Source of the DNA: Gammaproteobacteria bacterium
GTDB taxonomy: Bacteria > Pseudomonadota > Gammaproteobacteria > Xanthomonadales > SZUA-36
Length of the DNA stretch: 64,000 nucleotides
Direction: 5' to 3'
Assembly: GCA_021772915.1 (NCBI GenBank)
Contig: JAJFLB010000034.1
Span: 52,631 to 116,630 of the forward strand
Notes under the pieces: model-generated
Told to the model about the DNA's origin: nothing
Databases searched by the model: none
Seen by the model: the letters and a program-made list of their open reading frames with translations, nothing else
Shown here: piece by piece, positions 6,878 through 62,554 of the stretch
How positions within the stretch are numbered: position 1 is the first letter of the stretch
Layout: every line of letters starts with the position of its first letter
Translations under genes and position numbers: made by a program

Positions 6878-6903
6878 ACCGGGGCCTGCGGTGCTTGTTG
6901 CGC

Positions 6904-17247: not shown

Positions 17248-17330
17248 AAAGATTCGACCACCACCAGCTTGGCCGTCGCGCAATGCTCAGCTACCGAAAT
17301 CCTTAAGGAGTGATGAGTTCTATCGTGGTC

Positions 17331-38590: not shown

Positions 38591-38729
38591 CAGCCCGGTC
38601 TGCCCTCCTCGTCAGATCAAAAAATCGTCACTTCGGGGCAGGTTGAATAACTATTCAGGGTACATTAAGCCGCATCATTTATACTTGGCAAATGGTTGTA
38701 CTAAGAAGCTGGTTAACGGTTACGATCAT

Positions 38730-43867: not shown

Positions 43868-44064
43868 TGGACCGACGACCGTGTCGTCGGGAATAATTCT
43901 CCCGAAAGAGCACCCGCCTGATCCATGCAGGTATTTTGTGCCGGTCTTGCAGATTCCCGACGAGCAAGCTCGTCGGTCCTACAGGCCCACCGTCCTTTGT
44001 AGGAGTGACGACACACGTCGTCGCGAACATTCCAGATCCCGACAAGCAAGCTCGTCGGTCCTAC
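43868..44064. repeat. Cluster of four REP-like palindromic units in alternating orientation (BIME-like)
   Basis: ggaccgacgaccgtgtcgtcgggaa (43868-43893), ttcccgacgagcaagctcgtcggtcctac (43955-43983), gtaggagtgacgacacacgtcgtcgcgaa (about 43999-44027), atcccgacaagcaagctcgtcggtcctac (44036-44064). Confidence 0.75.
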
Positions 44065-44813: not shown

Positions 44814-44814
44814 A

Positions 44815-45606: not shown

Positions 45607-46646
45607 TAAAACCCTTGAGTCATTGCCGCCAGTTGCTTGAGTTTTTCCAGCGCTGCACCACTCGCCAATGTGTCTGTGGCCACCGCTACACCTTTGGCGA
45701 CAGAATCTGTTACACCCGCCACATACAGCGCAGCGCCGGCGTTGAGTGACACCAGGCGGGCTGCCCGCTGTGCGCGTTCATCATTTTCGTTCTCATGTGC
45801 CCCTGCCAGTGCCCCACGTAGTAGTAGCAGGGAGGCGTCCGCGTCATCCACGACCAGGCTTTGCAGTGGCTCCCGTTTGCAGCCAAGTTGTTCGGGTTGC
45901 AATTCATACTCGCTGATGACGCCATTTTGCAGTTCCACAACGAAGGTACTGTCAGCCAGACTGATTTCGTCCAGTCCGTCCCTGGAATGCACCACCAACA
46001 CGTGCTCAGAGCCCAGACGCTGTAACACTTCGGCAACAGGACGGCACAATCTGCGATCATAAACACCGATCAGCTGCCGGGTCAAACCCGCCGGGTTGGC
46101 CATTGGCCCCAGAATGTTGAACAAGGTACGCAATCCCAGTTCATTACGCGCCACCGTTACATGACGCATGGCACTGTGGTGCATGAGTGCAAACATAAAA
46201 CCCACACCCAGCTTGTCGACGCAGCTCGCTACCTGTACAGGCGAAATATCCAGCCGTACACCGGCCGATTCCAACACATCGGCACTGCCGCAGCTCGAAG
46301 AAACCGACCGGTTACCGTGCTTGGCGACCCGCCCGCCGGCCGCCGCCACAACAAAACAGGCCGCGGTGGAAACATTAAATAAATTGGCGCCGTCACCACC
46401 GGTGCCCACGATATCCACCAGGTGCGGGCCACTGACTTTTACGCCACTGGCAAACTCGCGCAGCACCTGTACGCCACCGGTAATTTCATCAATGCTCTCA
46501 CCCTTCATCCGCATGGCCAGCAAGAAAGCACCAATTTGCACATCGGTGGCGCCCGCAGACATGATCTGACGCATCACGGCCACCATTTCTTCGGTGGAAA
46601 GATCCTGCATTGTGGAAACACGGGCCAGTGCAGATTGTATGTCCAT
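45606..46646 (-). CDS. trpD: Anthranilate phosphoribosyltransferase
   Basis: [25 protein letters not shown] motifs. Start set at [10 protein letters not shown]. Confidence 0.95.
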
Positions 46647-46667
46647 GCTCATGAGTAAACGCCCCAC

Positions 46668-47252
46668 TCAGTCCAGTGTGTTGATGAAATTCTGCAGCAA
46701 ATCGTGGCCACAGTGGGTAAGAATGGATTCCGGGTGGAACTGGACCCCTTCAAGCGGCAAACTGTTGTGTTTCAGTCCCATGATCTCCTCCAACTCCCCG
46801 GTTTCTGTTTCGGTCCAGGCAGTGACCTGCAAGCACTCGGGTATGGCATCCCTTTGTAAAACCAAGGAATGGTAACGGGTGGCTTCAAACGGTTGGGGAA
46901 GACCTGCAAATACGCCCTCACCACGATGCTGTATCAACGATGTCTTGCCATGCATGACCTTGCCGGCACGCACCACCTGGCCACCAAAAGCCTGACCAAT
47001 ACACTGGTGGCCCAGACAGACACCCAGAATTGGGAACAAATTGCCAAGTTCAATAACCACCTCAAGCGATATACCGGCATCATCCGGTGTACACGGCCCC
47101 GGGGAGATGACAATACCCTGTGGCTCCAGCTTACGGATTTGTGCCGTGGTGATGGCATCGTTGCGTACCGTTTCTACTTCCGCTCCCAGCTCACCCAGAT
47201 ATTGCACCAGGTTGTAGGTGAAGGAATCATAGTTGTCGATCATTAGAATCAT
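46668..47252 (-). CDS. trpG: Anthranilate synthase component II (glutamine amidotransferase)
   Basis: [26 protein letters not shown] catalytic Cys, GVQFHPES; 194 aa. Confidence 0.9.
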
Positions 47253-47457
47253 AAAGATCTTATCTATTTGAAATTAAAGTAAATATAATACTCTGCAGTT
47301 TCTTGTTACATCAGAAAGAAGCACCGTTTTCAACCCTCAACGAGGCCTGAACAAACGGTGTACAGTTATATTAACTTGATAGTATCTGTGAAGCTAATGC
47401 GGGCATCCGGACGTCAATTCCAACATTAACCTGGTTCGGAACCAGCGGCTGGCTAAA

Positions 47458-48066
47458 CTACTTTATGTGACAACTCAGGCACAAGCTGTTGTCTGCATTG
47501 GACTTTCGCAAGAACGGTGAGATCGAGTCATCGTGCACAGAATGGCATGAAGAACATTCGACATTGTTGTTTGCAGACAACGGCAGCCCACCAACAGTAG
47601 CCGGTGAACCTGAAGCAGCTACAAAATCCCCATCCGCAGTCGCGTCGTAACGAATGGATACCGGGTGGTCGTCGCTGAGGTCAGTGCCTATCAGCATACT
47701 GCCTCCCACTGTATTGGTGCCATCGCTACCCCAGGGGTCACCGTATAACTGATCCACGGCAATGGTGCCATCGTGGCAGCTCAGGCAAGCCAGCGTACTG
47801 CCTTGCGGAGAGTTTGCCGTGGCCATGTCGATTGTGGGGCTGGTATACATGGTGAACGGGCCGGTCGGCATCGCCCGGTTCCAAGGTGGTACCTTCACGT
47901 GATTGGCATTGTGAGGTACATGGCAATATATACAAACGTTACCACCGTCGTTGGAATTGGTTCCTGAGAGGTCGTGTTTTGTATTGTTAATCTGCCCTGC
48001 GCTAACAACAGCGGACATCAACAGCGACCCTATTGCTGCAAGAATAAACCGGAAGGTGGTCTTCAT
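47458..48066 (-). CDS. Periplasmic tetrahaem c-type cytochrome (module copy A)
   Basis: Signal peptide. CIYCH, CLSCH, CSSCH, CLSCH. About 55-60% identical by eye to 50115..50720, and both end in C-L-x-C-H-I-K. Confidence 0.85.
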   Translation of the reverse strand: MKTTFRFILAAIGSLLMSAVVSAGQINNTKHDLSGTNSNDGGNVCIYCHVPHNANHVKVPPWNRAMPTGPFTMYTSPTIDMATANSPQGSTLACLSCHDGTIAVDQLYGDPWGSDGTNTVGGSMLIGTDLSDDHPVSIRYDATADGDFVAASGSPATVGGLPLSANNNVECSSCHSVHDDSISPFLRKSNADNSLCLSCHIK

Positions 48067-48426
48067 TTTTCAGGCCCTCCATAGTCTTGAAAAAGAAAGA
48101 TTTTGAAGTTGTATCCTCCCCATTTGGCGAACGAGCCACAAGTGGCAGAAAGACTATTTCGACAAAGAAAACCTGCCAGCAAAGCAGGGAAAAACTGACA
48201 GGGTAATTTGCTTTCTACATACGAGACTTCATGGCTGGAGCACGTTGTCTTTCCCCCCTCATGCCCGCCATTGTGCTCTTCCCAATTCGTTCACCTGGTG
48301 TGTATCGTCTGATAGCAGTTGATCCAGATCATGATACGGGTCATTTGTTGCTCTGCTCGGCACGACTCACGATGGATTTAGCACAGGTTCATGCCATAAT
48401 TCAGGCGCCCGATTATCAACTCAACG

Positions 48427-49506
48427 ATGAGCACAATTATGACTTTTTTAATCAATCGCTTCCTTAACACCCCCATAGTTGTATTTGCCCTCGCTGCGAT
48501 CTTCGCCCTAATTGCTGGTTGTGCTACTCAAGCACCTGTCCGACCAGTTGAGGACGCTCAGGATCTCGTCTGGCCCGCCCCACCGGAGCAGGCGCGTGTC
48601 CGTTACCTCGGCTTCCTGCAATCACTTGAGCACGTTGATGGCAAGAAGCAACAGAGCTTACGTGACATCCTCATGGGCGAGGAAGAGAGCGATTCAGCAA
48701 CACTGGCCAAACCCTACGCTGTACACAGTGATTCAAAAGGAAGAGTATTTGTTGCCGACACCGGTATTAGCGGCCTGGTTGTTTTTGACCTGGAGCAAGA
48801 CCTGGTTTCATTTTGGGGTACTGGAGGACAGGGAGCACTGACCAAGCCGGTTGGCGTTACCAGTGATGCGGCCGGCAATGTCTACGTCAGCGATGTCAAA
48901 GCCCAACGGGTGATCGTCTATGATACCGAAGGCAATTACAGCACTGGCTTTGGTGGTCCCGAGGTCCTGCCGTCACCCGTTGGCTTGGTTTTTAACGAGG
49001 CCAGCCAACGGCTCTACGTGGTGGATTCCAAACGTAGCCAAATTGTTGTATTTGACCCCTTGGGAAACGTTGTTTCCACGCTTGGCCAGCCTGGCTCTGA
49101 ACCCGGTAATTTCAACACACCAACCAACATCGCCATTGATGCCAGTGGCCGTCTCTACGTGGCTGATACAATGAATTTTCGCGTCCAAGTGCTGGAGCCC
49201 AACGGCACGGTCGTACGCAGCTTTGGCAAAATTGGTGACCGGCCGGGTGATTTTAATCGTTTGAAGGGCATCGGTGTGGACACTGAAGGGAACATATACA
49301 CGGTCGATGCTTCGTTCAACAACGTTCAGCTTTACGATCAACAGGGTGGGTTGTTATTGGTTGTTGGTCGCAGTGGTACGGGGCCCGGGGGATTCTACCT
49401 GCCGGCAGGGGCCCACGTGGACCGGAATAACCGGATCTTTGTTGCCGACCAGTACAATAAACGTATACAGATGTTTGAGTTCCTTCCTGAAACAAAAATC
49501 AATTAA
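48427..49506 (+). CDS. NHL-repeat (six-bladed beta-propeller) lipoprotein 1
   Basis: Lipobox LIAGC. Six repeats of the P.G(V/I).(V/D)..G.(V/I)YV(A/S/V)D....R(V/I)Q(V/I)(F/Y)(D/E) type. Confidence 0.85.
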   Translation: MSTIMTFLINRFLNTPIVVFALAAIFALIAGCATQAPVRPVEDAQDLVWPAPPEQARVRYLGFLQSLEHVDGKKQQSLRDILMGEEESDSATLAKPYAVHSDSKGRVFVADTGISGLVVFDLEQDLVSFWGTGGQGALTKPVGVTSDAAGNVYVSDVKAQRVIVYDTEGNYSTGFGGPEVLPSPVGLVFNEASQRLYVVDSKRSQIVVFDPLGNVVSTLGQPGSEPGNFNTPTNIAIDASGRLYVADTMNFRVQVLEPNGTVVRSFGKIGDRPGDFNRLKGIGVDTEGNIYTVDASFNNVQLYDQQGGLLLVVGRSGTGPGGFYLPAGAHVDRNNRIFVADQYNKRIQMFEFLPETKIN

Positions 49507-49873
49507 CCCGCTTTTTTCACCAGCATCCCAGATAAGGTGAGAGAAGGTGAGACCGGGAATCGGTCGAGAAACCGGCCTGGGCCGCCGGGAACCGGTCGAG
49601 AGGCTGGCCTGGGTCACTCGCCAGGGCCAGGATGAGTGCTGGGTCGCGTGCAATTTGCACCTTGGAATCTGTTGGCAAATATGTCATTTAGATAAACTGG
49701 TTCATTTGCTTGCGGTGAGACCCTTTCCTGGTAGATGAAATAAGGGGGAAGTCTAAAAGACCAATTTGGGGTTACCGGGTTGGCATCCTTTTTTGGGATT
49801 TGTTCAGCCGCCAAGTTCACAGGCACCCCACCCCAAATGGACAAGTTTCGCGCTTGACCAAAGTAAAGGCTCG

Positions 49874-49908
49874 TTTGACCATGGTCAAACCCAATTGATC
49901 TAAGTCAA
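49874..49908 (+). promoter_or_regulatory. Two adjacent FNR/FixK (CRP-family) type boxes upstream of the cytochrome operon
   Basis: Perfect palindrome TTTGACCATGGTCAAA (49874-49889; TTGA-N6-TCAA) and TTGATCTAAGTCAA (49895-49908; TTGAT-N4-GTCAA), centres 20 bp apart. TATTTT at 49931-49936 would put box 2 near -41.5. Confidence 0.5.
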
Positions 49909-50114
49909 TTCTTGGCAAATCTCACGTAGGTATTTTCCCCTTCCATATTGAACACAAAGCCAAGCACTAGGACAATCCTAGTAAAAGAAACAGGAATTGA
50001 CTGACAGTTTTTACAGGGGTCATTCGTTACCGAACACAGGGTGAATTCAGTCAGCAATGCTGCTGAATTGACCACAAGTTTAATGCACGAAAACCAACCT
50101 ATGAGGATAGAAAA

Positions 50115-50720
50115 ATGAGGACCAAGACACTACTCAAACTTGCAGTGCCAGCGCTTTTACTGGTAGCCGGTGGCGCTTCCGCACAAATCGCAAACACAGA
50201 TCATGACCTGTCATCAAGTGGCGGCAATATCTGTGTTTTCTGTCACACTCCACATAACGCAAACCCGGACGATACTGTACCGCTGTGGAACCGTGATACA
50301 ACCACGACCACCTTCACCATGTATGACAGCCCGACCATGGACATGACCGTCGCCGGCTCTCCGCAGGGCAGTTCACTGGCTTGTCTGAGTTGTCATGATG
50401 GCACCATTGCTACCGATCAGTTGTATGGTGGAACAGGTGACCCGGCCAAGAAACTTACCGGCGACAAAAATCTTGGCGCTAACCTCGATGACGACCATCC
50501 GATTTCCATTACCTACGCAACCACGGGTGCCAATGGCGATACGGCTTTTAACGACGCCGTGAGCGGAACATTGGGTGGGGGCTCCCTGCCGTTATTTGGG
50601 ACTTCCAGTGATCAGGTCGAATGCGCCACGTGCCACTCCGTACATGACGAGACAATCGGGAAATTCCTACGCATGGATAACGGCGGTAGCGCTATGTGTC
50701 TGGCTTGTCATATCAAGTAG
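50115..50720 (+). CDS. Periplasmic tetrahaem c-type cytochrome (module copy B)
   Basis: Signal peptide. CVFCH, CLSCH, CATCH, CLACH. GAGGA lies 7 nt upstream of the ATG. Confidence 0.85.
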   Translation: MRTKTLLKLAVPALLLVAGGASAQIANTDHDLSSSGGNICVFCHTPHNANPDDTVPLWNRDTTTTTFTMYDSPTMDMTVAGSPQGSSLACLSCHDGTIATDQLYGGTGDPAKKLTGDKNLGANLDDDHPISITYATTGANGDTAFNDAVSGTLGGGSLPLFGTSSDQVECATCHSVHDETIGKFLRMDNGGSAMCLACHIK

Positions 50721-50740
50721 GTTGGACAATAATTCGTCCC

Positions 50741-51355
50741 GTGGGAACTCGGGCAAATGTTCAAAGATCAGGAATCAGGGCGACGCAAGTCGCCCTGATT
50801 CTTTTTTGTTGGCCGTTCTTGTCAACCTGCACAAGTAAGGCCAGGTCCCTTTTCTTCGATGTCCCGCCACCCAGGCCCGAGTCTGCCGTGGAAGAGCAAC
50901 CGGCGCTCCCCCAGAACGAAGCGACCACAGCGGAACCCACTCTGGCTTTTGCACCGGACTCCGCTACCGAGCGACCGGCCCTGGAGACGGTACTGGATTG
51001 GGAGGAGGCACTGACCCTTCTGCCCAGGGATTACAAAGACAAGGCAGACTGGACGGCGGCGTGGAAGCAGGGTCTGGTCCGGCCGCGTACCGGGACCGAT
51101 CCCAGTGCCCGGGATGCCGTGGCCTTCAAATATGACTTTGTCATCGCGGCTCAAAACCCCAAAAATGATGCCTATTTTCCGCACTCAGCGCATACCGTCT
51201 GGCTGGGTTGCGAAAACTGTCACACCCGGCTGTATCCTTACAAGAGAAATCCAGCCAGTATGAGGGAGATGAGAAAAGGGGCCTCCTGCGGGGTCTGTCA
51301 CGGCAATGTTGCGTTTTCACTGAAGCAGTGTAAGCGCTGCCATCTTAACAAGTAG
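50741..51355 (+). CDS. Trihaem c7/c3-type cytochrome, probable lipoprotein with a Pro-rich linker
   Basis: CENCH, CGVCH, CKRCH in the pattern F.H..H....C..CH...(21)...CG.CH.....F....C..CH. A GTG at 50741 gives the signal VGTRANVQRSGIRATQVALILFCWPFLSTC. The track ATG at 50696 overlaps the upstream gene. The start is uncertain. Confidence 0.65.
   Translation: MGTRANVQRSGIRATQVALILFCWPFLSTCTSKARSLFFDVPPPRPESAVEEQPALPQNEATTAEPTLAFAPDSATERPALETVLDWEEALTLLPRDYKDKADWTAAWKQGLVRPRTGTDPSARDAVAFKYDFVIAAQNPKNDAYFPHSAHTVWLGCENCHTRLYPYKRNPASMREMRKGASCGVCHGNVAFSLKQCKRCHLNK
50774..50808 (+). terminator. Canonical intrinsic terminator / attenuator hairpin after the tetrahaem gene
   Basis: atcagggcgac-GCAA-gtcgccctgat (11-bp stem, GNRA-like loop) followed by tcttttttg. 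Confidence 0.7.
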
Positions 51356-51386
51356 TGAGGTCAGGGAGAGCCCGTCTGCGGGGTCC

Positions 51387-51758
51387 ATGTCAAGTATGCT
51401 AAAAAATTTGCGCTTACCCGGATTCGTTCTTGCCAGCGTATTCCTGTTGCCGGTGGTATCCGCAGGTGTTGCTACAGCGGATAGTGCACCTGGAGATATA
51501 CGCTTTACCAGGGAGGTTGATGACACAGACATGGCGGGATCGTTCGCGCCTTCCATATTTCCGCACTGGGTGCACCGGATTCATTACCGTTGCGACGCCT
51601 GTCACAACAGTTTATTTGAGATGCAACTAAACGCTGTCCCCGTCAACATGGACCTGATAAAGCAGGGCAAGGTTTGCGGCACCTGTCACAACGGAAGGCT
51701 CGCCTTTGGCGTTACCTTGCAGAGCTGCAACCGCTGTCATGTTTCCGTTCCGGAATGA
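51387..51758 (+). CDS. Trihaem c7/c3-type cytochrome (second copy), periplasmic
   Basis: Signal peptide. CDACH, CGTCH, CNRCH with the same spacing as the preceding gene; 123 aa. Confidence 0.75.
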   Translation: MSSMLKNLRLPGFVLASVFLLPVVSAGVATADSAPGDIRFTREVDDTDMAGSFAPSIFPHWVHRIHYRCDACHNSLFEMQLNAVPVNMDLIKQGKVCGTCHNGRLAFGVTLQSCNRCHVSVPE

Positions 51759-51803
51759 GCAATACGCCGTGCAGCATGCCGTACACGCAGAAGAAAGCAC
51801 GCC

Positions 51804-53768
51804 ATGAATCACTGGTGCTCTTATTACGTATGCGCTGCGATGATCGGACTGCTGGTGAGCCCGGATCGCGTTCAGGCCTGGGAAAACTTATTCCTCCTAC
51901 CACTTGAAATCGAGGCTGTGACCCGTTTTGATGGCACAGACCGCAGCGAGCCAGATAGCCATTTGCGTGACACCGAACTCAGGGTCGGTCTCCGTCTCAA
52001 GCAGGAAGGCTACAGCCTGGACCCGGCGATTGCCCGGTTCGTATTGGAAGTTGAACCGGCCTATAGCTGGGGGAAACTTGAGACCGGTACAATCAAGGAC
52101 AATCGTAGCGACAAGTTTCTCAGTTACCTGTTCCAATTCAACCTGTTTCAAGGCACACCGGGACCGGTAGGCCTCGACCTGTTAACCATGCGCAATAAGA
52201 GTCTCAATACGGGCTCATTAGGAAGTCGCTACGACAGTGAAATTGAAACCCATACGGGTACGGTCAACTGGAAAAACCGCGTCTTTCCCATGCAGTTCAG
52301 CTATAGTGAACGCTCACTCAAGCAGGATTTTCTGACCGGTGCGACCAACACACCATCGAAGCGTGATGATCACCTCCGCACACTAAAGCTCAAAGGAAAA
52401 AGCAGCAAACTGAATCTGCTCATTGAGCGGCAATCACTGAATGATCAGGTGCCGGACCGGGATCAGGATTTCGACCTCAACCACGCCAATTTATCCCACC
52501 GATTTGCCTGGGGCAGGGCCAGTCAATTGCGTTCAAGATGGGATTATTATGATCGCACCGGGTTTAATGCCAACAGACGTCTGTTCATTGAAGAGAACGT
52601 ACGAATCCAGCATGCCGATAAGCTGTTTAGCCAAAGCTCGCTGCGTTACTTCTCGGTAACCCAGGAAATCAAGACCAATGAATACATCGGTGACTTCAGG
52701 TTGCAGCACCAACTGTACGACAACCTGACCTCCACGGCCCAGCTGTTTGGTAATGCACGACGCTCCGACAGATTGGATGAAACCCGGTGGCGTACGGGTC
52801 TGGATAGCAGCTACCGTAAGCAGCGTTTATTCGGCGCCACGGTCAACGCGGGTATTGGTTTTTCCTACCAGGAGACGGAACGGGTTTCGAAACTTGGCCT
52901 GGTGGAAGTCATTGACGAGCGGCACGATGCGACCCTGGCAGGCAGTGTGGTTCTCGAAAACCGCTTTATCATCAATTCCAGCATTATCGTTACCAACTTT
53001 GACGGTACACTGGTCTACACGCAAGATATCGACTACCGGGTGGTCCAACTCACTGGCGAACTGACACAATTGCAGGTGATCCCCGGGGGACGAATTGAAG
53101 AGGGGGATACCTTGCTGATCAGCTACAAGACCGAGACGCTGCCGTCACAGGAGTTTTCTACCACCAACCTGCAATATAACCTAGGTATCAGTTTCCGCTG
53201 GTTACGCTTTACCCACCGAGGCCGCAAATCTGATGACCAGTTGTTATCCGGTGCTAACGAGAGTTTTCTCAAGGATAACCGTGACACCCTGACCAATCTC
53301 GAATTTCGCTGGAAGATCGTGGGTATCAATACAATGTTGAGTGCTGAGAGGCACTTCAACAAAATCGGCGATTTTGAGTCCCTGACCTACACCTACCGGC
53401 AAGTCCTGAGTTGGCCAATGTCCTCACGCACCCTCATTAACCTGAGCATGCTGGAGTCCTTCATCGAAACCAGCAGTCTGAATACGGATTTGTACAATTT
53501 CGAGTTATCACTTAACTGGCGCTCGCGGCGCGGTCTTTCGATTCGACCCGTCCTGGGCGCGTGGCGGCGTCTTGATGAAGACTTTTCAGGCGGCGGCTTA
53601 AACAGGGAAGACGAATTCCTCATGGCTGGTGTGACCCTGCGCTGGCAATACCGGAAAGTTGCGATGGATCTTAGCTATCACCATAATCGCCGTACCATCG
53701 ACACACTTCAAACCACTGATCAAACCACTGAAAACAGGGTAATGTTCAACCTGAGCAGGAGGCTCTGA
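51804..53768 (+). CDS. Predicted large outer-membrane beta-barrel protein (porin-like), family not recognised
   Basis: Signal-like N-terminus ...LLVSPDRVQA. 654 aa dominated by alternating hydrophobic/polar 8-12-residue stretches rich in Y/F/W/G/N/S/R (LSYLFQFNLF, VFPMQFSYSER, LRSRWDYYDRTG, VNAGIGFSYQETE). No cysteines after the signal peptide and no haem sites. Confidence 0.55.
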   Translation: MNHWCSYYVCAAMIGLLVSPDRVQAWENLFLLPLEIEAVTRFDGTDRSEPDSHLRDTELRVGLRLKQEGYSLDPAIARFVLEVEPAYSWGKLETGTIKDNRSDKFLSYLFQFNLFQGTPGPVGLDLLTMRNKSLNTGSLGSRYDSEIETHTGTVNWKNRVFPMQFSYSERSLKQDFLTGATNTPSKRDDHLRTLKLKGKSSKLNLLIERQSLNDQVPDRDQDFDLNHANLSHRFAWGRASQLRSRWDYYDRTGFNANRRLFIEENVRIQHADKLFSQSSLRYFSVTQEIKTNEYIGDFRLQHQLYDNLTSTAQLFGNARRSDRLDETRWRTGLDSSYRKQRLFGATVNAGIGFSYQETERVSKLGLVEVIDERHDATLAGSVVLENRFIINSSIIVTNFDGTLVYTQDIDYRVVQLTGELTQLQVIPGGRIEEGDTLLISYKTETLPSQEFSTTNLQYNLGISFRWLRFTHRGRKSDDQLLSGANESFLKDNRDTLTNLEFRWKIVGINTMLSAERHFNKIGDFESLTYTYRQVLSWPMSSRTLINLSMLESFIETSSLNTDLYNFELSLNWRSRRGLSIRPVLGAWRRLDEDFSGGGLNREDEFLMAGVTLRWQYRKVAMDLSYHHNRRTIDTLQTTDQTTENRVMFNLSRRL

Positions 53769-54772
53769 TGAAAAGGCGATGGCCGCTGTTCCTGGCCTTA
53801 TGGCTGAGCAGTTGTGCGACAACCGACCCCGGGGCGCCAACGTACCCAGGTGCGCTGAATCTGGTGTGGCCAGCGGCACCCGAACCAGCGCGGATCGAGT
53901 TCGTTACATCGTTCAGCACCGCGGATGATCTCGGTCTGCGTGATACCTTCTCTCGCAGGCTGAAAAAACTTCTTGCCGGTGGCGATGATCGCCATATGTC
54001 CCGGCCATATGCAGTCGCACTAAGCCCCTCTACCGTGGCCATTGCCGATCCGGGCGGAGCCACCGTGCATATTTACAACACTGCAAAATCGACGTACCGA
54101 AAACTGGATCGGGCGGGGAAAACCCCATTCCGCTCACCAATTGGTGTCGCCTTTGCGGGTGACCAACTGGTCATCGCCGATTCGGAGTTGAAAAAGGTCT
54201 TTTTATTGGACCGACGGTTTAAGCTGTTACGCAGTTTAGGCGGTTTTTTGCGTCCAACCAGTCTTGCTTTTGATCCGGCCGGGAAACGTCTCTATATTGC
54301 GGACACACTGGCGCATGAGGTGCAGGTTTTTGGTCTTGATGGTAGTTTGTTATACAAAATCGGCATACGAGGCGAGCAGATCGGCCAGTTTAACTTCCCA
54401 AGCCACCTGGCATTCGCCGGCGACCGCTTGCTGGTTAATGACACCATGAATTTTCGCATCCAGATTTTTAGCGCCGAAGGGGACCACATGGGCAGCTTTG
54501 GAAAACACGGTGACGGTTCCGGGTATTTCGCCCAGGCAAAAGGCGTCGCAATGGATTCCGACGGTCATGTCTACGTGGCCGATGCATTGGCAAACCGCGT
54601 ACAAATTTTTGACCAGTCGGGCCGGTTTCTGCTCGGGTTTGGTAGCAGTGGCAACGGCCCGGGTGACTTCCAGATACCTAGCGGACTGGCAATTCTCGAT
54701 GACATGATCTACGTGGCCGATTCCTATAATCAACGGATTCAGGTGTTCAGATACCTACCAGGGGCGAAGTGA
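53768..54772 (+). CDS. NHL-repeat lipoprotein 2
   Basis: Lipobox LSSCAT. NHL repeats (PYAVALS.., PIGVAFAGDQLVIADS, PTSLAFDPAGKRLYIADT, PSHLAFAGDRLLVNDT, AKGVAMDSDGHVYVADA, PSGLAILDDMIYVADS). Its ATG overlaps the barrel gene stop. Confidence 0.85.
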   Translation: MKRRWPLFLALWLSSCATTDPGAPTYPGALNLVWPAAPEPARIEFVTSFSTADDLGLRDTFSRRLKKLLAGGDDRHMSRPYAVALSPSTVAIADPGGATVHIYNTAKSTYRKLDRAGKTPFRSPIGVAFAGDQLVIADSELKKVFLLDRRFKLLRSLGGFLRPTSLAFDPAGKRLYIADTLAHEVQVFGLDGSLLYKIGIRGEQIGQFNFPSHLAFAGDRLLVNDTMNFRIQIFSAEGDHMGSFGKHGDGSGYFAQAKGVAMDSDGHVYVADALANRVQIFDQSGRFLLGFGSSGNGPGDFQIPSGLAILDDMIYVADSYNQRIQVFRYLPGAK

Positions 54773-54773
54773 A

Positions 54774-56579
54774 ATGCGTCAGGGCTGGGTATTGAGCTTG
54801 TTTCTCCTGGCAGCCGTGGATACTCTCGCCGCAGAAAACGTGGCGGACACACCACATAATCTGTCGGTGACCGGACCCGGCCCGTTCAGAAGCCAATCCG
54901 AAGACCGGATTTGTATTTTTTGCCACACACCCCACAGTTCAGCACCCGATGCACCCTTGTGGAACCGGCAGTCCGTTGGTTATACGAATTACCAAAGCAC
55001 TACGATGGACGCAAGCGCAGGACAACCCGGTGGATCTTCAATACTTTGCCTGTCATGCCACGATGGCACAATTGCACTTGGGGACATGTTCGGCAGCAAC
55101 CCAAACGTCACCGACCTGCAAGGAACATTCCTCACCGGCAGGTCAAACCTGGGACCTGATCTGTCCAACGATCATCCGGTTGGAATCATCTACGACAGCA
55201 GTCTGCTATCTTCGGATCCGGAACTGGTCAACCCCTCAAGTGTGGACCTGCCGCTCCACAATAGTGAGATTCAGTGCGTCTCCTGCCACGACGCGCACAA
55301 CAATACAACTCCGCCATTTCTCCAAAAACCGACGCTGAACGGTGAGCTCTGTATGAGCTGCCATGTATTTTCTGGTGCGGACTGGAGCTGGACAGATGGT
55401 TCGCACGCAGTTTCCGGAGCAACACCCGGGGGGGCGGACCCCTGGCCAGAACGCAAAGCTGCGTGGAAAGGACAGGACGTTAGTGAAAACGCGTGTATGA
55501 ATTGCCACGCACCACACAATGCGGCTACGCCAGCCAGGCTGGTCAAGGACCTGGAGGAAGCAACCTGCTACCGGTGCCATGACGGCAGTGTTGCCACACA
55601 GAACATTCAGGTCGAACTACAGAACTTTTACCGTCACCCTGTGGAGCAGACTCCCAGCCTGGCCCACAATGCCGCCCGTGAAGAAAATCCACTCACTATG
55701 GCCCTGCACGCAGAATGCGAGGACTGTCACAACCCGCACGCCAGCAGTGGCAACGCCGCATGGCCAATGATTTCATTCAACCCATCCAACCCAACGGGGT
55801 CAAACCACACTACCGCACCCTTTATTAATGGCAGTCTTGCCGGCACCAGCGGTATCGACGCCAATGGGGCATTCAAACCTGAGGCTGAATACGAGTACGA
55901 GGTCTGTTTCAAGTGCCATGGAGTTCCCGGGGATAATGCCTGCGACTATCGCCGTTGCTCAACACCCAGGACATACGACATGTCACGTAGCGATGGTGTT
56001 TACAACCTGCGCGAAAAGCTCGATCCCGGCAACCCGGCGTTGATCTCCTACCATCCTGTTGCCGGTAACAACCCGAGCAACAACAGCGAAGTTCCCAGTC
56101 TTCGAAATGATATACCCCTGAATCGCACCATAAGCCACATTTATTGCAGCGATTGCCACGGTAGCAGTATCTCACCTGCTGCCGGCGGGGCAGGTCCGAG
56201 CGGGCCGCATGGTTCCAGCAACGAAGGCATGCTCGCTTTGCGGTATGAATTTAACCCTCAGTCCAGTTTTAGTAGCTCTGCGGATAACCTCTGCTTCAAG
56301 TGCCACGACAGCGGCAGCCTGTTCAGCGACGAGTCTTTTCCCCACGAGGAGCACGTTCTCAAAGAGGACACCTCCTGTATCAACTGCCACGACCCACATG
56401 GTTCGGCTGTATATCCCCACCTGATCAATTTTCTGCTCACTTCCAGTTTTGCCGGCCAAGCTTTTGAGATTACGGGTGAAGGTGACTTTAATGAACCGAC
56501 CTGGATTGATGACGGGCAGTTTAGGGGTACCTGTTACTTGAATTGCCACGGTGAAAAGCACGACGGAGAGAGCTATTGA
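54774..56579 (+). CDS. Multihaem c-type cytochrome, 11 CxxCH + 1 CxxxCH sites
   Basis: Signal peptide. CIFCH, CLSCH, CVSCH, CMSCH, CMNCH, CYRCH, CEDCH, CFKCH, CSDCH, CFKCH, CINCH and terminal CYLNCH. The first roughly 200 aa are homologous to the two tetrahaem proteins. Confidence 0.85.
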   Translation: MRQGWVLSLFLLAAVDTLAAENVADTPHNLSVTGPGPFRSQSEDRICIFCHTPHSSAPDAPLWNRQSVGYTNYQSTTMDASAGQPGGSSILCLSCHDGTIALGDMFGSNPNVTDLQGTFLTGRSNLGPDLSNDHPVGIIYDSSLLSSDPELVNPSSVDLPLHNSEIQCVSCHDAHNNTTPPFLQKPTLNGELCMSCHVFSGADWSWTDGSHAVSGATPGGADPWPERKAAWKGQDVSENACMNCHAPHNAATPARLVKDLEEATCYRCHDGSVATQNIQVELQNFYRHPVEQTPSLAHNAAREENPLTMALHAECEDCHNPHASSGNAAWPMISFNPSNPTGSNHTTAPFINGSLAGTSGIDANGAFKPEAEYEYEVCFKCHGVPGDNACDYRRCSTPRTYDMSRSDGVYNLREKLDPGNPALISYHPVAGNNPSNNSEVPSLRNDIPLNRTISHIYCSDCHGSSISPAAGGAGPSGPHGSSNEGMLALRYEFNPQSSFSSSADNLCFKCHDSGSLFSDESFPHEEHVLKEDTSCINCHDPHGSAVYPHLINFLLTSSFAGQAFEITGEGDFNEPTWIDDGQFRGTCYLNCHGEKHDGESY

Positions 56580-56588
56580 CTCGGTTTT

Positions 56589-56617
56589 CTTACACAAGTG
56601 GGCTCTGCCTGTGTAAG
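56589..56617 (+). terminator. Hairpin after the multihaem gene (possible terminator)
   Basis: cttacaca-N13-tgtgtaag, followed by only a weak T-rich tract (ggcattcttaatt). Confidence 0.35.
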
Positions 56618-56734
56618 GGCATTCTTAATTCCAGTTGATCTCAGTCAAGTAGTGGTGCTGCTGCATTTCATACAATGCGGGTATCAGCTTTGGTGTAATT
56701 CAGTTTCTCCACAGACTGGGCAACTAGCAAATAC

Positions 56735-57433
56735 ATGTTTACTATATTGAAAGCAATCCTTGTCATCGGCACGCTCTTGCTTTTTGCAACTGCTATTTCG
56801 GCCAATGAACAAAGCCTCAAAACTGGTGCGGTCGCTGAGACCATGGCCGTCGGTTCTTATGTTTACGCACGTGTTGAGGATAACAACCTTTGGTTGGCTG
56901 CGCCTTTTGTTCCAGTTGCGGTTGGAGACACGATTAAGTTTGCGGGTGGCGCCATGATGAAGGACTTTTACAGCCCTGTATTGGAGCGCACATTTGAAGA
57001 TATTCTTTTTGTGCCGAAACTCGAAGTCATTCAGCAAGTCAATGTAGAAGATCACGCCAACACCATGGCCCACGAACCCATCGGTATTACAAGTAGCGAG
57101 GTCGCGACCGTTCCGAAAGCAGGTGAAATCGAACCCCTGTCAGGTGGAAAAACAATAGCCAGCATCTACTCGGAGCAATCGCAGTTACAGAATCAGAAAG
57201 TCGCCATACGCGCCCGGGTAATGAAGGTCAGTCTGAATATTCTCGGCAAGAACTGGATTACGTTGCAGGATGGTTCCGGTGTTGCACCAGACGATCAACT
57301 GATAGCAACGAGCTCAGAGGTCGTCAGTATCGGAGAACTGGTTACCGTAGAAGCCGTTGTTCGGAACAATGTTGACCTGGGCTCAGGTTATAACTACAGG
57401 TTGCTGCTGGAAAACGCTTCTTTTACCCAATGA
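56735..57433 (+). CDS. Exported hypothetical protein with two OB-fold-like halves
   Basis: Signal peptide MFTILKAILVIGTLLLFATAISA. Internal similarity between (VGSYVYARVEDNNLWLAAP...GDTIKF) and (KVAIRARVMKVSLNILGKNWITLQDGSG...GELVTV). Confidence 0.5.
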   Translation: MFTILKAILVIGTLLLFATAISANEQSLKTGAVAETMAVGSYVYARVEDNNLWLAAPFVPVAVGDTIKFAGGAMMKDFYSPVLERTFEDILFVPKLEVIQQVNVEDHANTMAHEPIGITSSEVATVPKAGEIEPLSGGKTIASIYSEQSQLQNQKVAIRARVMKVSLNILGKNWITLQDGSGVAPDDQLIATSSEVVSIGELVTVEAVVRNNVDLGSGYNYRLLLENASFTQ

Positions 57434-57479
57434 CTTTAGTCCAAAATAAAAATACACCTGGACCCCCTAACTGTCATGG

Positions 57480-58112
57480 GTGGCGATGCTGTTTCAGCCG
57501 GAGGGATTCACCATGACTTCTGAAGCACCGGGAAAGTGGCAAGTGTCACATGCTGAGTTGAGTTCACGAGTATTAGCAGATACAAGGCGACCAACTAAAC
57601 ACGGGCAGGGGCAGCTGTTGCTCCCCTTAATTTTATTTGTAATCGTTTTACTACTACTTATTTTGGACATCGCGGACGACCTGACCGTAGGCGTTTCACA
57701 AATGCACATCGTGGTCGAGAGTCTGTTGTCGGTGGCAGCTGCCATAGGTGCAGTATATTTTTACTGTTTGCTGCGAGCCTTACGAGAGGAGAATAAAGAA
57801 ATTCGGCAAAGCCTCAGTCGAGCCCGTTCAGAAGCTATGCATTGGCGGGAAAGGGAACGGGAGGTACTCAGTAATCTGCGGTCGTCGATCGGCACCCAAC
57901 TTAGAGATTGGGGCTTATCGCCCAAGCAGATGGAAATCGCTTTTTTGCTGCTTAATGGCTCGAGATTGAAGGAAATTGCGGAATTGAAGGGGAGTACATT
58001 CAAATCAGTAAAACAGCAGGCCCACATCATTTACCGCAAGGCCGGACTGGAAAGCCGCTCCGAGCTTTCAGCGTTTTTCCTGGGGGGGCTGATTGACCCC
58101 TTTCAGCCCTGA
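57480..58112 (+). CDS. Membrane-anchored LuxR/FixJ-type HTH regulator (2 TM + coiled coil + HTH, no receiver domain)
   Basis: TM segments LLLPLILFVIVLLLLILDI and VVESLLSVAAAIGAVYFYCLL. C-terminal LSPKQMEIAFLLLNGSRLKEIAELKGSTFKSVKQQAHIIYRKAGL. Start ambiguous (57480 GTG, 57486 or 57513 ATG). Confidence 0.7.
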   Translation: MAMLFQPEGFTMTSEAPGKWQVSHAELSSRVLADTRRPTKHGQGQLLLPLILFVIVLLLLILDIADDLTVGVSQMHIVVESLLSVAAAIGAVYFYCLLRALREENKEIRQSLSRARSEAMHWREREREVLSNLRSSIGTQLRDWGLSPKQMEIAFLLLNGSRLKEIAELKGSTFKSVKQQAHIIYRKAGLESRSELSAFFLGGLIDPFQP

Positions 58113-58121
58113 TTAACAGCC

Positions 58122-59636
58122 CTATAAACCTCTTGAAGCGCGGTTGACAGCGGTGATCAAAGCACGGCCCTTGTTACGGGTTTCTTCCCACTCTTTTCCG
58201 GCATCGGAATCGGCCACGATGCCGGCACCGGCCTGTACATGCAGCTTGCCCTCGTGGATGACGGCGGTGCGGATGGCAATGGCCAGATCGGTATCATCGT
58301 GCCAGCTGATATAACCCACTGCCCCTGCGTAGATATTGCGTTTCACGGGCTCGAGCTCGTTGATGATTTCCATGGCCCTTATCTTGGGTGCGCCGGATAG
58401 GGTCCCCGCTGGAAACGCGGCACGAATGGCGTCCATGGCACACAACCCCCGCGCGAGATCAGCCTGCACTTCCGAGACAATGTGCATGACGTGGGAATAG
58501 CTCTCTATAATCATTTGGTCGGTCATCTCAACACTGCCGGTTGCCGCGACCCGACCCGCATCATTACGCGCCAGGTCTATCAACATCAGGTGTTCCGCAC
58601 GCTCTTTTGGATCCGCCAGCAATTCCTCCGCCAGCACCTGGTCCTCAGCAGGAGTTTTGCCGCGATGACGGGTGCCGGCAATCGGCCGCAAGGTCACACG
58701 GCGATTCTGTACCCTAACCAGTACTTCCGGAGAAGAGCCGACGATCTGGGTATCACCCAGGTCAACAAAATACATATATGGTGATGGGTTCAGGGCCCGC
58801 AAAGCACGGTAAACATCCAGCGGCCGCGCTTGAAAGGGAACACTCATGCGTTGTGACAAAACCACCTGGAAGATGTCGCCCGCGAGGATGTATTGCTTGC
58901 TTTTCTCCACAGCTGCGACAAAGTCCGCCCGATTGAATCCGTAAGTGAAATCCCGCTCTCCCACGGCCTCACCGGAAGCCCCAAGGCCGTAACCGGTACC
59001 CCCTGAGCGCAAACGCCGTTCCAATTCGTCCAGTTTTTGCTGGGCCCGGTCAAAAGCACCCTCCTGACCGGGATCTGCATGCACGATCAGCCAAAGACGA
59101 CCCTCAAGATTGTCCAGAACCGCGACTTCCTCTGAAAGCAACAACTCGATATCAGCAGTACCCAGGTCGTCCTGCTTGTCACCAGTTGCAAGCTTTGGCT
59201 CAATCAGTTGCACGGTCTCATAGGCAAAATAACCGACCAAACCACCACTGAATAAAGGCAGTTCATCCAGCTGCGGCACATTGAACTCACCTTGCAGTTC
59301 AGCGATTCGCGCCAGGGGGTCGGCAACGGCTTGCTGGTGCACCTGCCGGCCACCCTCGGAATGGATCAGACTGTTGCCACGAACGGTGTAGCGGTGTCGA
59401 CAAGGTAGGCCAATGATCGAATACCGGCCCCAGGTTTCACCCCCGACTACTGATTCGAACAGATAAGAATCGGCGCCTTCGGCCAGCTTCAGGTAAACCG
59501 ACAGGGGGGTGTCAAGGTCTGCCAGCACCGATCTGTATACCGGGATGCGGTTGTAGCCCTCACCGCATAATTGTTCAAATCGTTCTTTGTTCACTTCCTG
59601 TCCCAGTGTAGCGTCCCGAAGCCATTGTGCAGCCAC
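58122..59636 (-). CDS. trpE: Anthranilate synthase component I
   Basis: 504 aa; LESV..GE.WGRYS, GAPK.RAMEII.ELE, RN.YAGAVGY motifs. Confidence 0.95.
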   Translation of the reverse strand: MAAQWLRDATLGQEVNKERFEQLCGEGYNRIPVYRSVLADLDTPLSVYLKLAEGADSYLFESVVGGETWGRYSIIGLPCRHRYTVRGNSLIHSEGGRQVHQQAVADPLARIAELQGEFNVPQLDELPLFSGGLVGYFAYETVQLIEPKLATGDKQDDLGTADIELLLSEEVAVLDNLEGRLWLIVHADPGQEGAFDRAQQKLDELERRLRSGGTGYGLGASGEAVGERDFTYGFNRADFVAAVEKSKQYILAGDIFQVVLSQRMSVPFQARPLDVYRALRALNPSPYMYFVDLGDTQIVGSSPEVLVRVQNRRVTLRPIAGTRHRGKTPAEDQVLAEELLADPKERAEHLMLIDLARNDAGRVAATGSVEMTDQMIIESYSHVMHIVSEVQADLARGLCAMDAIRAAFPAGTLSGAPKIRAMEIINELEPVKRNIYAGAVGYISWHDDTDLAIAIRTAVIHEGKLHVQAGAGIVADSDAGKEWEETRNKGRALITAVNRASRGL

Positions 59637-59704
59637 GGGTTGCCTCTGAAAGTAACATTAATTGCGCTGCAGTTCACGGGGCTGAAGAACCGATTCCAAC
59701 GGCG

Positions 59705-61717: not shown

Positions 61718-61720
61718 GAG

Positions 61721-62419: not shown

Positions 62420-62554
62420 AGCATTCCTTTTCGTGATGGACCTCTGAATCCGTAGTTATCCCATGGACGGAGTACTAGTGTAGTGCTTCGGTGCTGCCAC
62501 CGCATACCCAATGGGTTGTCAATTCTGAAAAATTGAGCCGGCGCCATAGTTTCG

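Follow-up and report, generated by a model that had tools for sequence, protein, structure and literature searches.

A multihaem cytochrome cluster between trpG and trpE that is probably an extracellular electron-transfer module of the uet/omcE type

The genes between trpG and trpE in this gammaproteobacterial genome probably form a self-contained module for extracellular electron transfer, of the uet or omcE type, and it may operate through a cytochrome filament. We analyzed a window of 64,000 nucleotides (the whole stretch of DNA under study) in which the gap, flanked by trpG, trpD, trpC and trpE as assigned by NCBIfam, contains ten open reading frames, each located exactly where the original prediction had placed it (Table 1). 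A recount of haem sites gave 4+4+3+3+11 = 25 CxxCH motifs, plus a CYLNCH motif in the 601-aa protein (residue 587), in agreement with the predicted 25 CxxCH and one CxxxCH. The only other real CxxCH open reading frame in the rest of the window codes for a dihaem protein (3639-4424), and the concentration of these motifs in the gap is far beyond chance. Pfam and NCBIfam profile searches detected Paired_CXXCH_1, Cytochrome_C7/nanowire_3heme and NHL domains among the cluster products, which upholds the predicted domain assignments. Although the system had been put forward as a candidate undescribed conduit, its parts list matches that of the published uet cluster, and it appears to be of this already named kind, related to the Geobacter OmcE nanowire loci.

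Table 1. Features of the trpG-trpE interval and its flanks (window coordinates).
Feature	Position	Strand	Length	Description
trpG	46668-47252	-		flank, outside the system (NCBIfam)
cyt4a	47458-48066	-	202 aa	OmcE-family tetrahaem, second paralogue; 4 CxxCH, 9 His, signal peptide
NHL1	48427-49506	+	359 aa	NHL beta-propeller outer-membrane lipoprotein 1; lipobox IAGC
Three tandem FNR/CRP-type boxes	49854-49908	+		TTGAY-N4-RTCAA; spacing 21 and 20 bp
cyt4b	50115-50720	+	201 aa	OmcE-family tetrahaem; 4 CxxCH
c7a	50696-51355	+	219 aa	c7-type trihaem lipoprotein; 3 CxxCH
RNA hairpin	50770-50803	+		15-bp stem, tetraloop, U-rich tail; 52 nt past cyt4b coding end
c7b	51387-51758	+	123 aa	c7-type trihaem; 3 CxxCH, signal peptide
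Barrel candidate	51804-53768	+	654 aa	modelled outer-membrane beta-barrel, ~30 strands
NHL2	53768-54772	+	334 aa	NHL beta-propeller outer-membrane lipoprotein 2; lipobox LSSC
UetJ-type multihaem cytochrome	54774-56579	+	601 aa	11 CxxCH + 1 CxxxCH
Single FNR-type box	56635-56648	+		87 nt upstream of the 232-aa protein gene
Exported protein	56735-57433	+	232 aa	signal peptide; fold without assignment
Regulator candidate	57480-58112	+	210 aa	two-TM membrane-anchored HTH, LIC13292-like
trpE	58122-59636	-		flank, outside the system (NCBIfam)

The two tetrahaem proteins had been recognized previously as paralogous cytochromes, but their homology to the OmcE nanowire subunit was overlooked. Specifically, cyt4b matches PDB entries 9YUQ (E 3.7e-31) and 7TFS (E 3.6e-30) over its full length, these being the two OmcE-family members solved as conductive filaments, with 7TFS representing OmcE itself, the subunit of a Geobacter cytochrome nanowire. 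Relative to G. sulfurreducens OmcE, cyt4b is 41% identical, a divergence equal to that of the filament-forming D. soudanensis protein, and all four CxxCH motifs and four distal His are invariant; it contains exactly eight His, the number needed for four bis-His haems. The cyt4a protein is 36% identical to OmcE with 8/8 ligand His invariant, and its extra His56 is replaced by Lys in the orthologue from locus L002, the closest relative and the only one to carry cyt4a. By comparison, cyt4b is found in 16/16 of the related loci L002-L018 where the contig covers its position, the L017 contig starting downstream of it, and it is presumed to be the conserved major extracellular subunit.

The same family extends into the 601-aa cytochrome, of which residues 8-197 match 7TFS (E 1.3e-30) and the N-terminal segment aligns with the OmcE family by hhalign (E 3e-48). 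OmcE-family membership is shown for cyt4a, cyt4b and the N-terminal third of this cytochrome, each with E about 1e-30 to the PDB structures 7TFS and 9YUQ, and the first 200 residues of the 601-aa protein form an OmcE-like tetrahaem module, which appears to be a new detail. The middle segment weakly resembles the N-terminal one (hhalign E 4e-10). The predicted 11+1 haem arrangement holds, with all 12 sites, the CxxxCH included, conserved among 70 homologues and 27 invariant His in a 54-sequence alignment. The expected absence of an MtrA-like decahaem is also borne out, as the best match to the MtrA/DmsE family (TIGR03508) reached 62 bits, below the cut-off of 192.

As predicted, two trihaem c7-type cytochromes are present, one of them a lipoprotein. 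c7a matches nanowire_3heme (NCBIfam, E 1e-18), and its true start is likely the GTG at 50741; the LSTC lipobox has a counterpart in each orthologue examined, and the lipobox Cys and an LFFD(V/I)xPP motif are conserved across 11 c7a orthologues. c7b, which matches Cytochrome_C7 (Pfam, E 9e-16) and nanowire_3heme (E 5e-20), is predicted to be a soluble periplasmic cytochrome. The two NHL-repeat lipoproteins are likewise supported by Pfam NHL matches (E 2e-28 for NHL1 and 9e-29 for NHL2) together with their lipoboxes. NHL1 keeps its syntenic position in 15 related genome loci and, over 324 residues, shares 33% identity (E 2e-63) with the NHL lipoprotein adjacent to Geobacter omcE, and NHL2 is 32% identical to the omcE-adjacent NHL protein.

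The 654-aa protein, previously described as beta-barrel-like, gave a confident AlphaFold2 model (pLDDT 88.5, pTM 0.78) of a large barrel with ~30 strands, a size sufficient for the conduit role considered originally. Strands 18 and 19 are separated by a conserved insert of 60 residues (376-435). Foldseek matched this model exclusively to large barrels, namely the 30-strand SlpA, PapC, LptD and MtrB, with MtrB giving the best TM-score among PDB matches (TMq 0.39). No Pfam family, MtrB/PioB included, matched the sequence, consistent with the lack of an MtrB hallmark noted previously. The barrel family comprises 2213 representative clusters at E<=1e-3. No sequence homology was detected between the 654-aa protein and the barrel encoded at the Geobacter omcE locus (752 aa; hhalign probability 0.8%), and an HMM of the broad barrel family scored the Geobacter protein at 11.5 bits with high bias, so that the export machinery may be analogous rather than homologous in the two systems.

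We compared the cluster with several known systems. The uetABCDEFGHIJ cluster was named in Ca. Tenderia electrophaga (Tenderiales), where expression data and comparative genomics led to its proposal as a module for the uptake of extracellular electrons (Eddie et al., bioRxiv 10.1101/2022.05.06.490989; mSphere 2022), and genomic studies of Gallionella and Leptothrix already use it as a marker. By described parts list, the two share a tetrahaem protein (UetA), c7-type trihaems, two NHL-repeat proteins, a secreted 11-CxxCH cytochrome (UetJ) and a large barrel (UetC, predicted at 28 strands); both occur in Gammaproteobacteria, and both are proposed to act in extracellular electron transfer. There are several differences. 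The gene order here is NHL, tetrahaem, c7, c7, barrel, NHL and 12-site cytochrome; the PPIase (UetB), the cupredoxin (UetF), a third c7 and the downstream ccsAB/nrfG/batABD genes are missing; and a second tetrahaem paralogue, the 232-aa exported protein and the membrane-bound regulator are extra.

Minimal omcE loci contain multihaem cytochromes, two beta-propeller lipoproteins, OmcE and a large barrel, and a large barrel plus a nearby beta-propeller lipoprotein are the published context criteria for nanowire-type OmcE homologues (bioRxiv 10.1101/2025.10.22.684050); both are present here. With the loci of G. sulfurreducens and Desulfuromonas soudanensis (7TFS, 9YUQ) the cluster has in common the subunit with its haem ligands, the adjacent homologous NHL lipoprotein, a large barrel gene beside the subunit gene, and a strong hairpin or terminator directly 3' of that gene. 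In contrast, the barrels show no detectable homology, a glycosylation gene block is absent here, and two c7 trihaems and the 12-site protein stand in place of the 9- and 8-CxxCH proteins of Geobacter, which are not c7-type and resemble the 12-site protein at the haem-motif level only. Fusion of an OmcE-like module to eight further haem sites is seen here and not in the Geobacter locus. The osc (OmcS-companion) assembly cluster of G. sulfurreducens, attributed to Shen et al. (Cell Chem Biol 2025), reportedly combines a filament subunit with a channel-like component, a beta-propeller and a prolyl isomerase. The likeness to osc is one of concept, with a prolyl isomerase counterpart only in relatives L019, L022 and L023; OmcS is a hexahaem protein without sequence similarity to OmcE. 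Clusters of Desulfovibrio ferrophilus IS5 also co-express multihaem cytochromes with NHL beta-propeller proteins, although these cytochromes are of other families (PMC5815863).

We infer filament formation, localization and partners at this locus from sequence, and the following scheme is conditional on that. The lipid-anchored and soluble c7 cytochromes would ferry electrons through the periplasm, and the barrel with the two propeller lipoproteins would provide outer-membrane passage and anchoring of OmcE-like subunits. The tetrahaem subunit, produced in excess, would polymerize in OmcE fashion, its N-terminal His ligating a haem of the neighboring subunit by analogy with the inter-subunit coordination published for OmcE. 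The 12-site cytochrome could dock onto this polymer via its own OmcE-like module and lengthen the haem chain, either as a base through the barrel or as a tip pointing outward; omcE operons are stated to encode no tip-like candidate (bioRxiv 10.1101/2025.10.22.684050). Electrons may be exported to minerals or partners or taken up as proposed for Tenderia, the genes being compatible with either direction. The physiological role of cytochrome filaments is a matter of dispute (PMC11077965).

The original prediction of conduit-like logic with a different parts list agrees with these data, as the cluster shares with MtrCAB, MtoAB and Geobacter Pcc and Ext the combination of a large barrel with periplasmic and surface multihaem cytochromes while having propeller lipoproteins and c7 modules in place of MtrA- and MtrB-type parts. 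A classic porin-cytochrome conduit lacking any filament, which we consider possible but rather doubtful, would have the 12-site cytochrome in or through the 30-strand barrel like MtrA/MtrC in MtrB. The tetrahaem proteins would then remain monomers that act as partners at the surface or in solution, and the NHL lipoproteins would do no more than stabilize the complex. Insertion of a multihaem cytochrome into the barrel is the primary model of the uet authors (bioRxiv 10.1101/2022.05.06.490989), the barrel is larger than MtrB, its PDB match of highest TM-score, and NHL proteins were proposed as stabilizers of the outer-membrane complex in D. ferrophilus (PMC5815863). Many OmcE-like tetrahaem proteins also exist, not all of which need polymerize (bioRxiv 10.1101/2025.10.22.684050). 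However, each of the eight His of cyt4b, the N-terminal one among them, aligns with a ligand position that is invariant in OmcE; membership in the MtrA/DmsE or MtrB families was not found (Pfam, NCBIfam); and a conserved hairpin follows the subunit gene, which suggests that more subunit than machinery is made.

The original prediction had left a choice between an extracellular electron system and a periplasmic enzyme. A periplasmic multihaem enzyme acting on a soluble substrate such as a sulfur or nitrogen compound, with the barrel as substrate porin, is very improbable. Close relatives of the cluster do occur in sulfur-oxidizing symbionts, and the NHL and SGL folds can also be those of enzymes, but neither a haem site of catalytic type nor any other cofactor domain was found in the cluster proteins, the His count fits haems that are all bis-His and dedicated to electron transfer, the nearest relatives of solved structure form extracellular filaments, and a ~30-strand barrel far exceeds known substrate porins. 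Furthermore, because the genes flanking the cluster differ in every related genome, no metabolic partner travels with it.

The hairpin following cyt4b falls within the signal-peptide codons of c7a. Of 18 sequences, comprising the window and 17 related loci, 16 have a hairpin at the corresponding offset of 51-56 nt. In a 12-sequence alignment 96% of cells are paired, and compensatory changes occur in 7/15 pairs versus <=3 in slid controls. Geobacter omcE likewise has a canonical terminator in the equivalent place. Upstream, the three tandem boxes sit 207-261 bp before the cyt4b start. Exact TTGAY-N4-RTCAA matches number four in the 64 kb, relative to 0.27 expected, and three of these lie within the cluster. 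The triple box is conserved in L002, and boxes are present also in L015, L019/L020 and L022. These FNR-type boxes suggest that the cluster would be induced when oxygen is scarce. Both the covarying hairpin after the subunit gene and the tandem upstream boxes appear to be new.

The seven-gene core order is kept in 21 other distinct loci, obtained from 22 related records (L002-L020, L022-L024) of which two (L019/L020) share one gene map, and these span several classes, covering Gammaproteobacteria, Schekmanbacteria and Kiloniellaceae. Among the sources are symbionts of lucinid clams and tubeworms as well as two MAGs, one from Schekmanbacteria and one alphaproteobacterial. The trpE-trpG interval had been put forward as an accessory-DNA hotspot; the location of the cluster there is specific to the present genome, as trp genes adjoin it in 0/22 related loci. 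A search for att-like flanking repeats found none. As anticipated, no inner-membrane quinol-linked partner or quinol dehydrogenase is encoded in the cluster or elsewhere in the 64-kb window.

Regarding the remaining two genes, the 232-aa protein has a signal peptide for export, while the OB-like fold proposed for it is not supported by any match in Pfam, NCBIfam or PDB. In 12 related genome loci the cluster is flanked by an orthologue of this protein (43-48% identity), the protein is kept alongside the cluster in Sedimenticolaceae relatives, and a SurA-like PPIase occupies its position in L019, L022 and L023. For the 210-aa regulator candidate, the predicted membrane anchor stands (two TM segments) but the LuxR-type assignment is not confirmed, as the GerE match is weak (E 0.006, under cut-off) and the LIC13292 regulator family fits better (NCBIfam NF047608, E 2e-17, under the family cut-off). 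Two copies of this regulator flank the cluster in L002.

The gap between trpG and trpE holds a cluster that is real, functional-looking and of a kind that has already been named. An ORF map reproduced the ten genes that the original prediction had placed there, and a recount of haem sites arrived at the same total of 25 CxxCH plus one CxxxCH, distributed as 4, 4, 3, 3 and 11 CxxCH with the longer motif present in the 601-aa protein as CYLNCH (residue 587). Profile HMM searches with Pfam and NCBIfam returned Paired_CXXCH_1, Cytochrome_C7/nanowire_3heme and NHL for the cluster products, and NCBIfam also confirmed trpD and trpC. Outside the cluster, the single real ORF with a CxxCH in the 64 kb encodes a dihaem protein at 3639-4424. 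The two NHL proteins carry the lipoboxes IAGC and LSSC and a third lipobox is found in the larger c7 protein (c7a). Since the lipobox Cys of c7a and the LFFD(V/I)xPP motif that follows it are kept in 11 orthologues, the long reading frame of this gene is settled, with GTG 50741 probably serving as its start. A profile built from nine orthologues of the 232-aa exported protein gave no match in PDB sequences or Pfam. Neither the 'OB-like' label of this protein nor the 'LuxR-type' label of the candidate regulator was confirmed by the profile searches.

Features of the cluster and its flanks (positions within the window)
Feature	Coordinates	Strand	Description
trpG	46668-47252	-	NCBIfam
cyt4a gene	47458-48066	-	tetrahaem cytochrome
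NHL1 gene	48427-49506	+	NHL-repeat lipoprotein
Tandem FNR/CRP-type boxes	49854-49908		predicted; two exact plus a third matching 9 of 10; upstream of tetrahaem gene
cyt4b gene	50115-50720	+	conserved tetrahaem cytochrome, 201 aa
c7a gene	50696-51355	+	larger c7 lipoprotein (reading frame)
RNA hairpin	50770-50803		15-bp stem plus U-rich tail; 3' of tetrahaem gene
c7b gene	51387-51758	+	c7 cytochrome
Barrel gene	51804-53768	+	654-aa protein
NHL2 gene	53768-54772	+	NHL-repeat lipoprotein
12-site cytochrome gene	54774-56579	+	601-aa protein
FNR/CRP-type box	56635-56648		predicted; one exact; upstream of 232-aa gene
232-aa protein gene	56735-57433	+	exported protein
Regulator gene	57480-58112	+	candidate membrane-anchored regulator, 210 aa
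trpE	58122-59636	-	NCBIfam

The tetrahaem cytochromes of the cluster are OmcE-type proteins. A sequence search of the PDB with the conserved tetrahaem protein, cyt4b, matched over its full length the OmcE-like bundle of Desulfuromonas soudanensis (9YUQ, E 3.7e-31) and the OmcE filament of Geobacter sulfurreducens (7TFS, E 3.6e-30), and its 41% identity to Geobacter OmcE is the same divergence as that of the filament-forming D. soudanensis protein. When OmcE was aligned with cyt4a, cyt4b, three relatives and the N-terminal module of the 601-aa protein, all four CxxCH motifs proved invariant, as did the distal ligands H31, H58, H149 and H208 (OmcE numbering), one of which lies near the mature N-terminus. 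Cohesion of OmcE filaments is partly provided by a His of one subunit that ligates a haem of the next (PMC9473688, PMC12954529), and cyt4b contains exactly eight His residues. The paralogue cyt4a has a ninth, and the idea that it could act as a filament 'stopper' (from bioRxiv 10.1101/2025.10.22.684050) was rejected, as this residue, His56, is Lys in the sole orthologue, that of the closest relative L002. In the Lamellibrachia barhami endosymbiont (L010), the tetrahaem and c7-lipoprotein gene pair is tandemly duplicated (5935-7222 and 8246-9533).

The original prediction had also put the system forward as a candidate undescribed one, and this did not hold, for its parts list is that of the published uet cluster and the kind has been both named and discussed. 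On the basis of meta-omics and comparative genomics, a role in extracellular electron uptake was proposed for the uetABCDEFGHIJ genes of Ca. Tenderia electrophaga, which code for a tetrahaem UetA, a PPIase UetB, a barrel UetC with 28 predicted strands, the c7 trihaems UetD, UetE and UetG, a cupredoxin UetF, the NHL proteins UetH and UetI and an undecahaem UetJ (bioRxiv 10.1101/2022.05.06.490989). Genomic work on Gallionella and Leptothrix has since adopted the cluster as a marker. Judged by the published description, both loci group a tetrahaem protein, c7 trihaems (two here versus three), two NHL proteins and a barrel of about 28 strands, and the secreted UetJ with its 11 CxxCH corresponds to the 601-aa protein, which has 11 CxxCH, a conserved CxxxCH and a signal peptide. 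However, the PPIase UetB, the cupredoxin UetF and the third c7 protein are absent from the window interval, the genes do not follow the A to J order, and the cluster is followed by trpE rather than by ccsAB, nrfG and batABD.

A second published description applies as well. Nanowire-type OmcE homologues, which are reported in Pseudomonadota, have been defined by a nearby large barrel and beta-propeller lipoprotein, with minimal omcE clusters made up of OmcE, the barrel and a pair each of multihaem cytochromes and propeller lipoproteins (Petersen et al., bioRxiv 10.1101/2025.10.22.684050). The window cluster has such a barrel and beta-propeller lipoprotein neighbourhood, and its NHL lipoprotein is homologous to the one adjacent to Geobacter omcE. 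Specifically, NHL1 aligns with the Geobacter protein at 33% identity over 324 residues (full length, E 2e-63), with the WPxxPE region at the N-terminus covered, and NHL2 does so at 32% identity. In contrast, the accessory cytochromes of the two loci are unlike each other and their barrels have no detectable homology. A family HMM made from 125 sequences reached 11.5 bits with a bias of 22, and hhalign gave a probability of 0.8%. The window cluster fits both the uet and the omcE-cluster descriptions and is identical to neither. These are two separate literatures that the present analysis joins, in that a homologue of OmcE, the nanowire subunit of Geobacter, lies at the core of the uet cluster for electron uptake in cathode- and iron-oxidising bacteria; the uet preprint mentions neither OmcE nor Sedimenticolaceae (bioRxiv 10.1101/2022.05.06.490989). 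The interest of the cluster rests on this link, on the fused module in its 12-site cytochrome and on its presence in chemosynthetic symbionts.

The 654-aa protein is indeed large enough for a conduit-sized barrel, with 30 long strands in an AlphaFold2 model made from a 34-sequence alignment (pLDDT 88.5, pTM 0.78). It belongs to a large unnamed family, for an exhaustive profile search collected 2213 representative clusters at E<=1e-3 (795 at E<=1e-30), and this family has no Pfam model. Conservation within the family is highest in a 60-residue insert (residues 376-435) that separates strands 18 and 19 and, by the topology of the model, probably lies on the periplasmic side or serves as a plug. 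The insert also matches a model of the phage tail tube, weakly and below threshold (E 9e-4).

Residues 8-197 of the 601-aa cytochrome match 7TFS at E 1.3e-30, and a comparison of profiles relates this N-terminal segment to the OmcE family at E 3e-48. Since the CxxxCH and the 11 CxxCH are all kept in 70 full-length homologues, the protein is effectively a 12-site cytochrome. Its middle third aligns with the N-terminal segment at E 4e-10, which suggests a diverged copy of the OmcE-like module. An AlphaFold2 model made without haems scored low (pLDDT 61.9), and Foldseek with that model found no match below E 5.

We consider it rather probable that the cluster codes for an extracellular electron-transfer apparatus centred on a secreted, probably polymeric, OmcE-type cytochrome. 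This cytochrome would be exported and anchored by the barrel and the propeller lipoproteins, fed by the c7 cytochromes and extended by the 12-site protein. The main rival is that the same parts form a non-filamentous porin-cytochrome conduit, a reading that we regard as possible though not probable. The cluster has no MtrA-like decahaem, as the original prediction had noted, with the highest relevant scores well short of their cut-offs (TIGR03508, 61.7 bits versus 192.2; GSU2203 family, 48 versus 325). The lack of an MtrB-like barrel hallmark was borne out likewise. A Pfam search with the 654-aa barrel returned no family, MtrB/PioB included, and Foldseek retrieved generic large barrels alone, namely 30-strand SlpA, the PapC/FimD ushers, LptD and MtrB; MtrB (6R2Q_B) had the top value at TMq 0.39, yet this is no better than that of other large barrels. 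A paper on extracellular electron transfer in Methylobacter was considered as a related system and set aside, as it describes an unrelated, MtrA-type conduit. That the cluster specifies a periplasmic enzyme is very improbable, given that it has no catalytic site and no co-travelling partner, while its barrel is very large.

Within the preferred reading of an OmcE-based apparatus, a more specific role can be proposed for the UetJ-type 12-site cytochrome as a dedicated filament-terminal subunit, although we hold this only tentatively and think it rather unlikely. Its OmcE-like N-module would join the tetrahaem polymer by the same His-haem cross-ligation, and the other eight haem sites would run through the 30-strand barrel, where they would form a base connecting the filament with the c7 proteins in the periplasm, or else would make a solvent-exposed tip. 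The barrel with the two propeller lipoproteins would then act as a usher-like assembly platform, and a conserved RNA hairpin would fix the ratio of subunit to machinery as in pilus operons. The omcE operons are reported to encode no tip- or initiator-like relative of OmcE (bioRxiv 10.1101/2025.10.22.684050); by its domain make-up, the 12-site protein is a candidate for such a relative and, if the scheme is true, would be the initiator or tip protein that the Geobacter operons are said to lack. Together with the hairpin and a set of FNR-type boxes, the fused module is a testable handle on the initiation, anchoring and dosage of cytochrome filaments, and on when they are made.

The hairpin lies 51-56 nt past the coding end of the tetrahaem gene in 16 of 18 sequences (the window and 17 related loci), within the signal-peptide codons of the next gene, which codes for the c7 lipoprotein. 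In a 12-sequence alignment 96% of cells are paired, and compensatory changes occur in 7 of the 15 pairs as compared with at most three in slid controls; the pairing persists as the encoded peptide changes. Other examples include 8952-8985 in L002 and 8819-8854 in L003, a symbiont locus, and there are further ones in other loci; a U-rich tail accompanies the hairpin only in the window and L002. A strong hairpin or terminator occupies the equivalent place at Geobacter omcE and in more distant loci. By analogy with pilus operons, we infer that the hairpin may give differential dosage of subunit and machinery. An Rfam scan of 44000-62500 gave no match.

When the window was searched for the FNR/CRP-type pattern TTGAY-N4-RTCAA, four exact boxes were found versus 0.27 expected, three of which are inside the cluster. 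The triple box is kept in L002 (7997-8049), and boxes are also present in several free-living-type loci (e.g. L019, 3481-3516) and absent from the Thiodiazotropha loci. These predicted boxes point to regulation that responds to oxygen or NO.

A genome scan with the barrel as query returned 17 loci from Ca. Thiodiazotropha (lucinid-clam symbionts, Sedimenticolaceae), Lamellibrachia and Escarpia tubeworm endosymbionts and Gammaproteobacteria MAGs. By tblastn these loci have a common gene order, namely the 232-aa protein (divergent), NHL, tetrahaem, c7, c7, barrel, NHL and 12-site cytochrome. The whole cluster is kept in the sulfur-oxidising symbionts (L003-L018), and the closest cluster, at 69-78% identity, is that of Gammaproteobacteria MAG OFTM312. 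Our literature search found no paper with both 'Thiodiazotropha' and 'multiheme' cytochromes. The seven-gene core that runs from NHL to the 12-site cytochrome is also present in distant loci found with the 12-site protein, from two gammaproteobacterial MAGs of sediment origin and one MAG each of Schekmanbacteria and Kiloniellaceae. In L019, L022 and L023 (gammaproteobacterial and Schekmanbacteria MAGs) a divergent SurA-like PPIase replaces the 232-aa protein, and the Kiloniellaceae MAG has neither.

Trp genes flank none of the related loci and the flanking genes differ everywhere, which indicates that the module moves as a unit and that its position between trpG and trpE is particular to this genome. 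The original prediction had regarded this interval as an insertion hotspot; the placement itself stands for this genome, and the comparison with relatives lends the hotspot no support. No flanking direct repeats, tRNA or integrase were found in the interval, and the GC content of the cluster is just slightly below that of its flanks (0.48-0.56 versus 0.56-0.58). One distant gammaproteobacterial MAG carries, one gene downstream of the cluster, a gene for an IS200-type Y1 transposase (L019, 13258-14040; L020, 11951-12733), consistent with a mobile module. The Kiloniellaceae locus (L024) is the only one with NrfD and 4Fe-4S genes near the cluster; there, NrfD-like, 4Fe-4S and c-type cytochrome genes (15850-18640) are situated about 4 kb away and are a candidate for the quinol-pool link that the window lacks.

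Several further observations concern the surroundings of the cluster. The cyt4a gene immediately precedes trpGDC on the strand that they share, and trpG, being 10.9 kb apart from trpE, has to be expressed from a promoter within the 205-bp gap or by read-through from the cyt4a gene. Four ORFs have no NCBIfam match (38643-41540, 965 aa; 15781-17247, 488 aa; 25413-26576, 387 aa; 37235-38176, 313 aa), and Pfam searches with the 965-aa and 488-aa ORFs likewise found nothing. Beyond trpE (59705-62419, minus strand, and onward, L001 13066-14185), a histidine kinase and a response regulator match the regulators of the 'proteobacterial dedicated sortase system', the response regulator above its curated cut-off (373 versus 336 bits) and the kinase below (457 versus 612), and this pair is followed by a VIT/VWA protein.
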